This document shows positions 47,395-55,992 of a DNA stretch of 64,000 nucleotides, in pieces. The DNA is taken from NCBI RefSeq assembly GCF_058153355.1, contig NZ_CM177019.1, one strand, 5' to 3'. The translations under genes were made by a program, and so were the position numbers. The notes below the pieces were generated by a model. It was given only the letters and a program-made list of their open reading frames with translations, was not told where the DNA came from and did not search any database. How positions within the stretch are numbered: the stretch's first letter is position 1; the number at the start of each line of letters is the position of its first letter.

Positions 47395-48246
47395 ATGTAT
47401 CACGACGTCAGCTATCTGCTCTCCCGCCTGATCAACGGCCCGCTGTCGCTGCGCCAGATTTACTTTGCCAGCAGCAACGGCCCGGTGCCCGATCTTGCGT
47501 ATCAGGTCGATTTTCCACGGCTGGAAATTGTGCTGGAAGGCGAGTTTGTTGATACCGGCGCTGGCGCAACGTTAGTTCCCGGCGATGTACTGTACGTTCC
47601 CGCTGGCGGCTGGAATTTCCCACAATGGAAAACACCCGCTACCACCTTTAGTGTGTTGTTTGGCAAACAACAACTCGGTTTCAGCGTCGTGCAATGGGAT
47701 GGCAAACAGTATCAAAATCTGGCGAAGCAACACGTCGCCCGACGCGGCCCGCGCATTGGTTCTTTTCTGCTACAAACGCTCAATGAAATGCAAATGCAGT
47801 CGCAAGAGCAGCAAACGGCAAGGCTTATCGTCGCCAGCCTGCTTAGCCACTGCCGCGATTTGCTTGGTAGCCAAATCCAGACCGCCTCACGCAGCCAGGC
47901 ACTATTCGAAGCTATTCGCGATTATATCGACGAACGCTATGCCTCCGCGCTTACCCGCGAATCTGTCGCACAGGCATTCTATATTTCACCAAACTATCTC
48001 TCGCACCTGTTTCAAAAAACGGGGGCCATTGGTTTTAACGAATACCTGAATCACACGCGACTGGAACACGCTAAGACGTTATTGAAAGGCTATGACCTGA
48101 AGGTAAAAGAAGTGGCGCACGCCTGCGGCTTTGTTGACAGCAACTACTTCTGCCGTCTGTTTCGTAAAAACACCGAACGCTCGCCGTCGGAATATCGTCG
48201 GCAATACCATAGCCAACTGACAGAAAAATCGACTACTCCAGAATAA
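47395..48246 (+). CDS. yijO: AraC/XylS-family transcriptional regulator
   Basis: 283-aa ORF with C-terminal AraC HTH; 14-bp convergent overlap with frwD. Confidence 0.88.
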   Translation: MYHDVSYLLSRLINGPLSLRQIYFASSNGPVPDLAYQVDFPRLEIVLEGEFVDTGAGATLVPGDVLYVPAGGWNFPQWKTPATTFSVLFGKQQLGFSVVQWDGKQYQNLAKQHVARRGPRIGSFLLQTLNEMQMQSQEQQTARLIVASLLSHCRDLLGSQIQTASRSQALFEAIRDYIDERYASALTRESVAQAFYISPNYLSHLFQKTGAIGFNEYLNHTRLEHAKTLLKGYDLKVKEVAHACGFVDSNYFCRLFRKNTERSPSEYRRQYHSQLTEKSTTPE

Positions 48247-48574
48247 GATGGGTTTGCTGCGGCGCAGAAAGCACTTTACGCACCGCGCTCATCACCCGCT
48301 GCGGCTCACGCAGGAACGCGTAGATGCTGCATTGCACGTAGCGGCAATGTTCAAATCGCTCAGCACCGGCAAGTTCAATATCCGTAATCAACAGCGCAAC
48401 ATCCGCCCGGCGGATATCCTCGTCCGCTAAACGATTCTCCGTTCCCAAAGCACCCTGAGTTTCAATTCTGACGCCCCACTTCTCTAACTGGCACAACTTT
48501 TCCAGCCGTTCCGCCGCCATATAAGTATGCGCCACGCCGCTTACGCAGGCGGTTACTGCCACCAGGTATGCCAT
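48233..48574 (-). CDS. frwD: PTS fructose-like EIIB component
   Basis: 113-aa EIIB ORF with active-site Cys (VTACVSGVAHTYMAAE). Confidence 0.88.
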   Translation of the reverse strand: MAYLVAVTACVSGVAHTYMAAERLEKLCQLEKWGVRIETQGALGTENRLADEDIRRADVALLITDIELAGAERFEHCRYVQCSIYAFLREPQRVMSAVRKVLSAPQQTHLILE

Positions 48575-48575
48575 T

Positions 48576-52102: not shown

Positions 52103-53182
52103 TTAATTAATTTCAAAATCCAAATCCAGGTCGTCTTCTTTTTCATCAGTCGAAGACCCATTTTTACGCGCCAGACTTTTCAGCACGTTCACGCAGACTG
52201 CCGTCACCACTGCTCCGACAGCCACTGCGGCGATATAACCCAGCTTGCCTTCAACCACCGGCAGCACAATCAGACCACCCCAGCCTGCATAGCACTGCGC
52301 ACCGACCAGCGCCGCAGTTACTGCACCACAAACTGAACCGACCATGATGGAAGGAATAACACGCAGCGGATCGGCAGCGGCAAAAGGAATCGCCCCTTCA
52401 GTAACCCCAACGCACCCCATCACCAACGCCGCTTTGCCGGTTTCGCGCTCTTCTGCGGAGAAATTTTTACGACCAATCAGCGTCGCCAGCCCCATGCCCA
52501 ACGGTGGAACACAAATCCCAACAGCGGCAATAGCCACCACGGTATAAACACCCTGAGCAACGCAAATCAGCATGAAGGCATAGGCCACTTTGTTAACCGG
52601 ACCGCCCATATCGAACGCCAGCATCAGCCCCATGATCACCGCCAGCATAACAATGCTGCCCTGCTGCATCCCCTGTAGCCACTGAGTCAGGCTGTTGGTC
52701 AACGCCCCCACCGGCTCGCCCAGTCCCCACATCATGACACCAGCGGTAATCAGTGTGCCGACGATCGGAATGATGAAGATTGGCATCACCGAGCGCAGAA
52801 CTTTATGCACCGGAATTTTCTTCAGATAATGCACCACGATGCCGCCGATAATCCCTGCGATCAGCGCACCAAAGAAGCCCGCGCCAAAGCTGTTACCAAC
52901 CCAGGCACCGATGGCGCACGGAGCCAGCGCAGAACGTTCTGCAATGGAATAACCGATGTACGCTGCGAGGAAAGGCACCATCAGCGTCAACCCCGCAACG
53001 CCGATATCAAACAGTTTTTTCAGATTCGGATCGGCTACGGCATCCGGCACTGCGCCTTTGCCATACAACATGACGGAAACCGCCAGCAAAATACCGCCCG
53101 ATACCACGAAGGGAATCATATGTGAAACGCCCGTCATTAAATGCTGACGGGTATTTTTCAGGATCTGCACCAACTCATTCAT
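52103..53182 (-). CDS. frwC: PTS fructose-like EIIC permease (start at MNELVQILKNTRQ)
   Basis: 359-aa polytopic membrane ORF. Confidence 0.9.
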   Translation of the reverse strand: MNELVQILKNTRQHLMTGVSHMIPFVVSGGILLAVSVMLYGKGAVPDAVADPNLKKLFDIGVAGLTLMVPFLAAYIGYSIAERSALAPCAIGAWVGNSFGAGFFGALIAGIIGGIVVHYLKKIPVHKVLRSVMPIFIIPIVGTLITAGVMMWGLGEPVGALTNSLTQWLQGMQQGSIVMLAVIMGLMLAFDMGGPVNKVAYAFMLICVAQGVYTVVAIAAVGICVPPLGMGLATLIGRKNFSAEERETGKAALVMGCVGVTEGAIPFAAADPLRVIPSIMVGSVCGAVTAALVGAQCYAGWGGLIVLPVVEGKLGYIAAVAVGAVVTAVCVNVLKSLARKNGSSTDEKEDDLDLDFEIN

Positions 53183-53490
53183 AAGCTGCTCCCGGGCTTG
53201 CAAAAGCCCATGTCCATATTTTTGATGGAGGAAACAATAGGCAATCGCAGGCGGAGCAAACAGTGGATAAAAAGGCCATTTACTGGACTTTTGTAATATC
53301 AGTACAAAAATGCGATCCGCCTCATAACTTGCGATAACCCGGAAGCATGCCGCAGAACGGCGTCTTGTGAGACGCGTCGCAAATTGACGGTTACATTACA
53401 TTTGTCCAGCTTTTGGCAGATTTGTCACATGGCAGGCCGTTGCCGTGCGCTCTTATCCTGTAAACAGAGAACCGTACCGGGAGAGAGGCA

Positions 53491-55992
53491 ATGGCCCTGA
53501 TTGTGGAATTTATTTGTGAGCTACCTAACGGCGTACATGCGCGTCCGGCAAGCCACGTTGAAACGCTGTGTAATACTTTTTCATCACAAATTGAGTGGCA
53601 TAACCTGCGCACTGACCGCAAGGGCAACGCCAAAAGCGCCCTTGCGCTGATTGGCACCGATACGCTGGTGGGCGATAACTGCCAGTTACTGATTTCCGGG
53701 GCCGACGAGCAGGAAGCGCACCAGCGTTTAAGCCAATGGCTGCGCGATGAATTCCCCCACTGCGACGCGCCGCTGGCGGAAGTAAAATCTGACGAACTGG
53801 AGCCGCTGCCGGTATCATTAACCAACCTGAATCCGCGTATTATCCGCGCCCGCACCGTATGCAGTGGTAGCGCAGGCGGCATTCTGACGCCAATCTCTTC
53901 TTTAGATCTCAACGCGCTGGGTAACCTCCCCGCAACCAACGGCGTTGACGCCGAGCAATCCGCGCTGGAAAACGGCCTGACACTGGTACTGAAAAATATT
54001 GAGTTTCGTCTGCTGGATAGCGACGGTGCTACCAGCGCGATTCTGGAAGCGCACCGCTCCCTGGCTGGCGATACTTCCCTGCGCGAACATTTACTGGCAG
54101 GCGTCAACGCCGGATTAAGCTGCGCCGAAGCAATTGTCGCCAGTGCGAATCACTTTTGCGAAGAGTTCGCCCGTTCCAGCAGCAGCTACCTGCAAGAACG
54201 CGCGCTGGATGTGCGCGATGTCTGCTTCCAGTTACTCCAGCAAATCTACGGCGAGAAACGCTTTCCGGCACCGGGCAAGCTAACGCAGCCCGCCATTTGT
54301 ATGGCGGATGAACTGACCCCTAGCCAGTTCCTCGAACTGGATAAAAATCACCTCAAAGGATTGTTGCTCAAAAGCGGCGGCACCACCTCACACACGGTGA
54401 TCCTTGCCCGTTCGTTCAACATTCCGACGCTGGTTGGTGTGGATATTGATGCCCTTACTCCGTGGCAGCATCAAACGATTTATATCGACGGCAACGCTGG
54501 GGCGATTGTGGTTGAGCCTGGAGAAGCCGTAGCCCGTTATTATCAGCAAGAAGCCCGCGTACAGAACGCCCTTCGTGAGCAACAGCGTGTCTGGCTGACC
54601 CAACAAGCCCGTACCGCTGACGGTATCCGCATTGAAATTGCCGCTAACATCGCTCACTCCGTCGAAGCGCAGGCCGCATTCGGCAATGGTGCGGAAGGCG
54701 TTGGTTTGTTCCGCACTGAAATGCTCTATATGGATCGCACCAGTGCACCGGGCGAAAGCGAGCTGTACAACATTTTTTGTCAGGCGCTGGAGTCCGCCAA
54801 CGGACGCAGCATTATTGTGCGCACTATGGATATTGGCGGTGACAAACCCGTTGATTATCTGAATATTCCCGCAGAGGCAAACCCGTTCCTCGGTTATCGC
54901 GCCATGCGTATTTATGAAGAGTACGCGTCGTTATTTACCACGCAGCTACGATCGATCCTGCGCGCCTCCGCTCATGGCAGCCTGAAAATCATGATCCCGA
55001 TGATCTCTTCAATGGAAGAGATCTTATGGGTGAAAGAAAAACTGGCGGAAGCTAAACAGCAGCTGCGTAACGAACACATTCCGTTTGATGAGAAGATCCA
55101 GCTCGGTATCATGCTTGAGGTGCCGTCAGTAATGTTCATCATTGATCAATGCTGTGAAGAGATTGATTTCTTTAGTATTGGTAGTAATGACCTGACGCAA
55201 TATCTGCTGGCAGTGGATCGCGATAACGCTAAGGTAACTCGTCACTACAACAGCCTGAATCCGGCATTCTTACGAGCGCTTGATTACGCCGTGCAGGCAG
55301 TGCATCGCCAGGGCAAATGGATTGGTCTGTGCGGTGAACTGGGGGCGAAAGGTTCCGTGCTGCCGTTGCTGGTCGGTTTAGGGCTGGATGAGTTGAGCAT
55401 GAGTGCACCGTCAATTCCGGCGGCGAAAGCGCGAATGGCGCAACTTGATAGCCGCGAATGCCGCCAGTTGCTCAACCAGGCAATGGCCTGCCGTACTTCG
55501 CTGGAAGTGGAACACCTGCTGGCACAATTCCGCATGACGCAACAGGACGCACCGTTGGTCACCGCCGAGTGCATCACGCTGGAAAGCGACTGGCGCAGCA
55601 AAGAAGAAGTGCTCAAAGGCATGACCGATAACCTGCTGCTGGCGGGCCGCTGCCGCTATCCGCGTAAACTGGAAGCCGACTTGTGGGCGCGCGAGGCCGT
55701 TTTCTCTACCGGTCTGGGCTTTAGTTTTGCCATTCCACACAGCAAATCAGAACACATTGAGCAGTCCACCATCAGCGTGGCGCGTCTGCAAGCGCCAGTG
55801 CGCTGGGGCGATGATGAAGCACAATTCATCATTATGTTAACCCTTAACAAACACGCTGCCGGCGATCAGCATATGCGCATTTTCTCGCGCCTCGCTCGCC
55901 GCATCATGCACGAAGAATTCCGTAACGCGCTGGTTAACGCCGCCTCTGCCGACGCTATCGCCAGCCTGCTGCAACATGAACTGGAACTGTAA
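53491..55992 (+). CDS. ptsA: multiphosphoryl transfer protein (HPr-EI-EIIA fusion)
   Basis: 833-aa ORF with HPr-like N-terminus and Enzyme I PEP-utilising domain. Confidence 0.92.

Follow-up and report, generated by a model that had tools for sequence, protein, structure and literature searches.

This report concerns the frw/pfl locus in a 64,000-nucleotide stretch of contig NZ_CM177019.1 (RefSeq assembly GCF_058153355.1), referred to below as the window. The locus consists of the operon frwC-frwB-pflD-pflC-frwD and the divergent operon ptsA-fsaB-gldA. Together they encode a phosphotransferase system (PTS), the glycyl radical enzyme PflD with its activase, an aldolase and a dehydrogenase, and they are adjoined by yijO, a gene for an AraC-family regulator. 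The cluster is an ordinary, intact core locus of Escherichia coli of known function, the substrate and chemistry of which were published in 2024; very probably it encodes the pathway ('anhydroglycolysis') by which E. coli uses 1,5-anhydromannitol anaerobically. Novelty, if any, is limited to the proposed control region, in which CRP and YijO would act at two mirror-image promoters.

Pathway assignment

An original prediction, made from the letters of the window, held the substrate of the cluster to be unknown and named a published assignment as the finding that would overturn this view. Such an assignment exists: 1,5-anhydromannitol was published by Ma et al. (J Am Chem Soc 146:26187, 2024; pmid 39283600), as summarised in a 2025 review (PMC12441222). 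According to that summary, a PTS converts 1,5-anhydroglucitol and 1,5-anhydromannitol into the respective 6-phosphates; PflD then cleaves 1,5-anhydromannitol-6-phosphate and YbiW cleaves 1,5-anhydroglucitol-6-phosphate, both yielding 1-deoxyfructose-6-phosphate (PMC12441222). The reaction is described there as strictly anaerobic because a glycyl radical is needed, and the two pathways are said to support growth on 1,5-anhydroglucitol in E. coli and in further gut bacteria (PMC12441222). The earlier suggestion that a PTS coupled to a glycyl radical enzyme and an aldolase points to an anaerobic sugar or sugar-alcohol pathway was later demonstrated, and the label 'cryptic' is probably outdated too.

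The steps ascribed to FsaB and GldA fit the family assignments obtained here from sequence. FsaA or FsaB reportedly splits 1-deoxyfructose-6-phosphate into glyceraldehyde-3-phosphate and hydroxyacetone, and GldA is said to reduce hydroxyacetone to 1,2-propanediol. The abstract of the original study is also said to report a substrate-bound structure and anaerobic growth of E. coli on both 1,5-anhydromannitol and 1,5-anhydroglucitol.

The following course of events is proposed. The EI domain of PtsA (His301) would take phosphate from phosphoenolpyruvate and relay it via the HPr-like His16 and the EIIA His750 to Cys10 of FrwB, and FrwC would import 1,5-anhydromannitol as its 6-phosphate; phosphorylation of 1,5-anhydromannitol by a PTS is published in the summary cited above, while the residue-level relay is predicted from motifs. 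PflC, a radical S-adenosylmethionine (SAM) activase, would set the radical on Gly741 of PflD, from which it would pass to Cys419, with Glu421 acting as the base. PflD would then cut the ring C-O bond to give 1-deoxyfructose-6-phosphate; this reaction, too, is published, and the residue roles are assigned by analogy with other glycyl radical enzymes. FsaB, through a Schiff base on Lys85, would split the product into glyceraldehyde-3-phosphate and hydroxyacetone, and GldA would convert hydroxyacetone to 1,2-propanediol, regenerating NAD+; these last two steps follow what the abstract reportedly states.

Identity of the encoded proteins

Gene coordinates were taken from the open reading frame listing and from comparison with annotated genomes. 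Related loci were collected by a scan of species-representative genomes, which gave 80 loci with PflD at 74-99% identity, spanning Escherichia, Citrobacter, Enterobacter, Lelliottia, Pluralibacter, Atlantibacter, Buttiauxella, Yersinia, Hafnia, Rahnella, Serratia, Raoultella, Edwardsiella, Gilliamella, Necropsobacter and Vibrio. All cluster proteins gave full-length matches above curated cut-offs in Pfam or NCBIfam, FrwC lacking a Pfam match only. Gene content and the divergent two-operon layout are as the original prediction had described them, all genes are full-length, with K-12 lengths and no internal stop, and the catalytic motifs it listed are in place (Cys10 of FrwB and FrwD, Gly741 of PflD in RVAGYS, and C47x3C51x2C54 of PflC).

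PflD (49420-51717, minus strand; 765 aa), the glycyl radical enzyme reported as the ring-opening lyase of 1,5-anhydromannitol-6-phosphate, contains both the PFL-like domain (PF02901, E = 3e-211) and the glycine-radical domain (PF01228, E = 4e-31), which together cover its full length. Gly741 lies in RVAGYS and Cys419 and Glu421 lie in GCVE; both motifs are invariant in an alignment of 83 orthologues. The protein scores 1343.8 bits against TIGR01774, the PFL2/glycerol-dehydratase subfamily (cut-off 678), and 1723 bits against NF007437 (cut-off 1109), and it is identical at 754 of 765 residues (98.6%) to PDB entry 8YJO, 'Probable dehydratase PflD'. PflC (48576-49454, minus strand; 292 aa), the radical-SAM activase of PflD, carries C47-x3-C51-x2-C54 together with C73, C76, C79 and C86, and exceeds the cut-offs of the NF007483 equivalog (628 bits, cut-off 326) and of TIGR02494 (262 bits, cut-off 174). 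With both domains, the RVxG[FWY] loop, the Cys-x-Glu loop and the adjoining CxxxCxxC activase gene pflC, PflD has the defining features of a glycyl radical enzyme.

Among characterised systems, the B12-independent glycerol dehydratase (1R8W) and related eliminases such as CutC and HypD share the PFL-like and glycine-radical domains, the Cys-x-Glu loop, the RVxGY loop and an adjoining radical-SAM activase; PflD differs from them in that its substrate is a cyclic phosphosugar ether, of which a ring C-O bond is broken rather than the C-OH or C-N bond of a small molecule. The YbiW/YbiY system, which acts on 1,5-anhydroglucitol-6-phosphate, is of the same enzyme class and is summarised as giving the same product, 1-deoxyfructose-6-phosphate (PMC12441222). 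Both enzymes have been crystallised (PflD, 8YJO; YbiW, 8YJN and 8ID7; all named 'probable dehydratase'). YbiW is nonetheless a distant paralogue (482 versus 1723 bits for PflD) acting on the C2 epimer, and the ybiW locus lies outside the window.

The PTS proteins show the complete set of features of a fructose-family system, namely a IIC permease, a IIB active-site cysteine, and a phosphorylatable histidine in each of the EI, HPr and EIIA domains. FrwC (52103-53182, minus strand; 359 aa) is the fructose-family IIC permease; it matches the NF007787 equivalog over its full length (719.9 bits, cut-off 426) and TIGR01427 at 301 bits, and gave no Pfam match at E<=1e-5. FrwB (51768-52088, minus strand; 106 aa) is a IIB protein that scores 210 bits against NF007783, and FrwD (48233-48574, minus strand; 113 aa) is a second IIB-like protein; both match TIGR00829, and both place the active-site Cys10 in VTAC(P/V)SGVAHT. 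PtsA (53491-55992, plus strand; 833 aa), encoded divergently from frwC, is a fused phosphorelay protein with five Pfam domains in the order HPr-EI-EIIA and a match to TIGR01417; its histidines are His16 in the HPr-like domain, His301 in the EI domain (GGTTSH) and His750 in the EIIA domain.

FsaB (56004-56666, plus strand; 220 aa) is the class I fructose-6-phosphate aldolase 2, with the Schiff-base lysine Lys85 in VVKIP, and matches TIGR00875 (351.5 bits, cut-off 246) as well as NF009296. GldA (56677-57780, plus strand; 367 aa), a glycerol / L-1,2-propanediol dehydrogenase, matches the NF047954 equivalog over residues 1-365 of 367 (752.8 bits, cut-off 700). The range 48233-55992 given in the original prediction runs exactly from frwD to ptsA; fsaB and gldA, which it also named, lie just outside that range.

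Control region and candidate regulator

The two operons diverge from the frwC-ptsA spacer (53183-53490, no strand; 308 bp). The spacer differs from that of K-12 at 5 of 308 positions (1.6%) versus 14.0% at silent sites of the flanking genes, about nine-fold less (Fisher p = 8e-13), and its length is about 301-316 bp across the Enterobacteriaceae. In an alignment of 18 species, two conserved blocks mirror each other. Followed towards its operon, each module comprises, in this order, a CRP-like site, a gap of 26 nt, a direct-repeat pair, a gap of about 24-25 nt and a -10-like hexamer. The frwC promoter has CRP site 1 (TGCGATCCGCCTCATA, 53311-53326, no strand), the direct repeats AAAAGTCCA ... 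TTTTATCCA (53264-53292, minus strand) and the putative -10 hexamer TATTGT (53234-53239, minus strand), which is conserved in 18 genera or species and lies within the conserved block GATTGCCTATTGTT. The ptsA promoter has CRP-like site 2 (TGTGAGACGCGTCGCA, 53366-53381, no strand; 9 of 10 core positions match), the direct repeats ATTTGTCCA ... ATTTGTCAC (53400-53428, plus strand) and the putative -10 hexamer TATCCT (53454-53459, plus strand) within the conserved block TTATCCTGT. The proximal repeat is 24 nt from the hexamer on the frwC side and 25 nt on the ptsA side.

Both repeat pairs are candidate YijO operators. Their members are 20 bp apart on either side, and the consensus reads TTACAwwwRTCCAG for the distal and wTTTRTC(C/A)AC for the proximal half-site. 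A strict form of the repeat-pair pattern has two matches in the 64-kb window, both in the spacer. Among 72 orthologous spacers, 39 match it on the ptsA side and 44 on the frwC side (0.175 expected per shuffled set), the distance of the frwC-side repeats to the start codon being conserved; over 1.68 Mb of related loci, 87 matches fall in the spacer and 5 elsewhere. The matches include those in Vibrio, Rahnella, Serratia and Necropsobacter, the spacers of which are otherwise unalignable with that of the window.

A CRP core with 8-9 of 10 positions matching is present at the same 26-nt offset in all 39 of the ptsA-side modules, including that of Vibrio, and one with 7-9 of 10 in 40 of the 44 frwC-side modules; in shuffled sequence a core score of at least 8 occurs in 2.75% of 55-position scans. 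In enterotoxigenic E. coli (ETEC) H10407 a chromatin immunoprecipitation sequencing peak of CRP was named 'ptsA/frwC' (PMC4287617). The site reported under this peak is identical to TGCGATCCGCCTCATA, so that CRP occupancy of the spacer has experimental support (PMC4287617). Control by FNR, which would explain the anaerobic use, was considered and rejected; the best match to its box (TTGAT-N4-ATCAA) in the window has 6 of 10 positions, and across the 72 spacers the scores are no better than those of shuffles.

The arrangement resembles that of the araBAD promoter, at which CRP and AraC act, AraC on two direct repeats. Both have a CRP site that precedes two direct repeats of the AraC type, spaced by about two helical turns, and then a weak -10 element, and both have the TCCA box in their half-sites. 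In the present spacer, by contrast, the module is doubled in mirror image for two divergent operons and the regulator would be YijO; experimental support here is that for CRP occupancy, at one site (PMC4287617).

YijO (47395-48246, plus strand; 283 aa), the candidate dedicated regulator of the cluster, appears in a 2022 listing as a transcription factor of unknown function (PMC9308461). It matches the HTH_18 and HTH_AraC models. An AlphaFold model (49 orthologues; predicted local distance difference test score 84) has an N-terminal beta domain, with strands over residues 22-115, followed by a double helix-turn-helix within seven C-terminal helices. A C-terminal double helix-turn-helix behind an N-terminal beta-barrel sensory domain is the architecture of the AraC/XylS family, to which YijO belongs; its full-length fold matches are Rns, CsvR and ToxT. 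For the N-terminal domain, Pfam gave only a sub-threshold JmjC/cupin hint (E = 0.014), and a sequence search for a solved homologue of this domain found none. The DNA-binding domain of YijO shares 38% identity with its AraC counterpart, and this likeness would account for the AraC-like TCCA half-sites. In 75 of 82 loci, including rearranged ones, pflD has a yijO-like gene within 10 kb, the product of which is 49-99% identical to the window protein.

YijO is thus likely to be the dedicated activator of the cluster, as judged from its sequence and genomic position. In the model that we propose, CRP and an AraC-type activator, most likely YijO, would drive both divergent promoters, the activator occupying the repeat pair (20-bp spacing) that immediately precedes the -10 element. 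Provided that the -10 guesses hold, CRP would be centred at about -92 and the repeats would extend from about -66 to -38, which is the layout of araBAD. The more specific proposal that YijO responds to 1,5-anhydromannitol or its 6-phosphate, binds both TCCA-box repeat pairs and activates both operons with CRP is a tentative one, to which we give slightly less than even weight. FrwD might be involved as well: its Cys10 is invariant in 71 of 71 orthologues, and frwD lies no more than 150 nt from yijO in 62 of 71 loci, including those of Necropsobacter and Vibrio, where frwD has parted from pflC. Speculatively, FrwD perhaps reports PTS flux to YijO rather than serving transport.

Several points count against this model of control. 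The repeat pattern was derived from the same sequences in which it was counted, and counts from close relatives are not independent; the independent part consists of the matches in Vibrio, Rahnella and Necropsobacter. The -10 assignments and the CRP position near -92 are guesses. A simple sigma-70 scan found no promoter in the spacer, and over the region it gave no more matches than shuffled sequence did; this null result fits activator-dependent promoters and proves nothing. Finally, another regulator, for instance AraC itself or an unlinked factor, might bind the repeats, and YijO might regulate something else. The AraC half-site araI1 is TAGCATTTTTATCCATA, and the frwC-proximal repeat TGGCCTTTTTATCCACT resembles it. 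Against this alternative, yijO has kept its place by the cluster in nearly all of the 80 genomes, rearranged ones included, the repeats occur in the window in this spacer only and across related loci almost exclusively there (87 versus 5), and an AraC-like motif would be expected from the likeness of the two DNA-binding domains. We therefore consider a regulator other than YijO unlikely.

Distribution in related genomes and range of substrates

When the nine window proteins were used in tblastn searches of the related loci, pflC, frwB, frwC, frwD, ptsA and a yijO-like gene were found linked to pflD in nearly all of them, and this linkage holds from Escherichia to Vibrio, Gilliamella and Necropsobacter. 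The aldolase gene fsaB is linked to pflD in most loci, and gldA mainly in Escherichia, Citrobacter, Enterobacter and their close relatives. Five loci, four of Kluyvera and relatives (L033, L034, L042 and L051) and one of Edwardsiella piscicida (L077), retain pflD-pflC and the yijO-like regulator; no frw PTS, ptsA, fsaB or gldA was found within 10 kb in these five. A search for an alternative transporter beside pflDC in L033 revealed no obvious one; the neighbours there are hypD/hypE, an fhlA-like sigma-54 activator, a hydrolase and a PhyH-like dioxygenase. Two further loci are irregular. In that of Rahnella ecdela (L063) the pflD reading frame (10001-12295) contains an internal stop, and in that of Edwardsiella hoshinae (L027) frwC was not detected between ptsA and frwB (about 8450-9560). 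These oddities may reflect local decay of the cluster or assembly errors.

Two considerations weigh against the assignment of 1,5-anhydromannitol. The roles of FsaB, GldA, FrwC, FrwB and PtsA rest on one sentence of the review and on what the abstract of the original study reportedly states. Moreover, 1,5-anhydromannitol is termed a 'non-physiological polyol' in humans by the review, which derives it from the reduction of 1,5-anhydrofructose by bacteria (PMC12441222). The chemistry could accordingly be right and 1,5-anhydromannitol a surrogate for a related 1,5-anhydro or 1-deoxy hexitol or ketose, or for a broader set of compounds. The loci of Kluyvera and E. piscicida are in line with this, since the absence of a linked frw PTS within 10 kb implies that the routes of substrate entry differ between species. 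On the other side, the abstract is said to report growth on the compound itself and a substrate-bound structure, and nothing in the sequence indicates a different substrate. The glucitol epimer, for its part, is already handled by the paralogue YbiW, as the review summarises (PMC12441222). Taken together, a surrogate role for 1,5-anhydromannitol is improbable, and the pathway for 1,5-anhydromannitol is the reading that we retain.

Product names in current databases

In RefSeq and in NCBIfam release 20 (June 2026), PflD is still entered as 'formate C-acetyltransferase' and PflC as its activating enzyme, in spite of the function assigned in 2024 and of the PDB name 'probable dehydratase'; this lag in naming accounts for the impression, in the original prediction, that the substrate was unknown. 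Taken literally, the names would make PflD a second pyruvate formate-lyase beside a fructose PTS formed by FrwCBD and PtsA, and the PTS components do belong to the fructose family. The name fails its own test, because PflD scores 120.6 bits against the pyruvate formate-lyase model TIGR01255 (cut-off 994.2), with only residues 575-764 matched, and because its likeness to solved PflB structures is confined to the C-terminal glycine-radical domain (residues 565-763). The closest characterised relatives are dehydratases and lyases, e.g., the glycerol dehydratase 1R8W (E = 4e-194). PflB carries a Cys-Cys pair at the position where PflD has a single Cys followed by Glu (GCVE). The activity published for PflD, as summarised in the review, is C-O cleavage of anhydromannitol-6-phosphate (PMC12441222). 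The formate-lyase reading is already contradicted by these data and has very little probability left.

Sequence conservation and selection

The window matches the K-12 locus frwCB-pflDC-frwD / ptsA-fsaB-gldA (b3945-b3953) in genes, order, orientation, lengths, spacers and motifs. All nine genes, i.e., the eight of the cluster and yijO, have the length of their K-12 MG1655 counterparts, an ATG start, a Shine-Dalgarno-like sequence and no internal stop. The proteins differ from those of K-12 by 0-11 residues each and by 36 amino acids in total: FrwB is identical, GldA differs at one position, FrwC at two (both conservative), YijO at four and PflD at 11. Ten of the 11 differences in PflD are at positions that are polymorphic among the 83 orthologues, and at seven of these ten the window has the commonest residue; the remaining one, V541I, is conservative and unique to the window in that set. 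At four-fold degenerate sites, 236 of 1687 positions (14.0%) differ from K-12, which, set against 36 amino-acid changes over nine genes, indicates strong purifying selection. A cryptic, decaying remnant without current function, as the historical label 'cryptic' and the lack of a consensus sigma-70 promoter in the simple scan might suggest, is a very improbable reading and is already contradicted by this selection signal (amino-acid divergence of about 1% versus 14% at silent sites), as well as by the intact genes, the catalytic residues invariant in 83 orthologues, the highly conserved regulatory spacer and the near-universal presence of the locus in E. coli.

With coverage of >=80%, the locus occurs in 5393 of the 5426 complete E. 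coli genomes and thus belongs to the core genome of the species. Its best match among these genomes has 98.4% identity. The original prediction had called it a known K-12 locus; this holds for genes and gene order, but the coding DNA is merely 95-96.5% identical to that of MG1655, so that the window represents an E. coli lineage other than K-12.

The segment 45000-60000 has about 95% identity to K-12 and no more than about 98% to any complete E. coli genome; in other regions of the window the identity rises to about 99-99.5%, with 99.4-99.5% at the rpoBC end. Either the strain of origin belongs to a divergent E. coli lineage, or this segment is a block of divergent alleles. Elsewhere in the window, a 1426-bp insertion (17625-19050) lies between coaA and birA; the closest complete E. 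coli genome, that of strain 2013C-4282, lacks it. The insertion codes for a transposase of about 442-448 aa, which we take to be that of IS4 (InsG).

Operon structure and flanking elements

The intergenic gaps are 14, 50, -35 and 1 nt on the frw side and 11 and 10 nt on the ptsA side; such short gaps within each operon are consistent with two divergent operons. The negative value reflects the start of pflC, which overlaps the end of pflD by 35 nt. The 3' end of frwD overlaps that of the convergent yijO by 14 nt (48233-48246), which leaves the terminator of the frw operon without room outside yijO. The frwD/yijO pair is among the convergent 'excludon' candidates in K-12 (PMC12288877).

A terminator scan detected a GC-rich stem-loop (CCCGCCC-GUAA-GGGCGGG) with a U-rich tail in the 50-nt frwB-pflD spacer (51742-51759, minus strand). 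It has a seven-pair GC stem and a GNRA loop; in K-12 the stem is the same with one G-U pair replacing a G-C pair, and most genera have a hairpin of differing sequence in this spacer. Across 25 sequences, 85% of cells are paired and compensatory changes occur in five of the seven pairs, above shuffled and slid controls. The hairpin is possibly a partial terminator or attenuator or an RNA-stabilising element, and its effect may be to tune the balance between PTS and enzyme transcripts or to protect the RNA upstream of it.

Directly after the gldA stop codon a hairpin (AACTCCCGG/CCGGGAGTT) is followed by sequences resembling repetitive extragenic palindromic (REP) sequences or bacterial interspersed mosaic elements (BIMEs) at 57790-57930. 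A palindromic element similar to the one after gldA lies upstream of yijO (47270-47345), and a BIME attenuator candidate ahead of yijO has been mentioned (PMC2965389). An Rfam scan of 47000-58500 gave no match in the cluster and one sub-threshold match in the REP region after gldA.

Implications

In genome annotation the labels of PflD (formate acetyltransferase) and of the PTS ('fructose-like') are still wrong, and as a consequence automated readers will keep flagging the locus as an orphan. The model in which CRP and YijO act together offers a concrete and cheap hypothesis for how the pathway is switched on, with relevance to the production of 1,2-propanediol and to the use of 1,5-anhydro sugars by gut bacteria.

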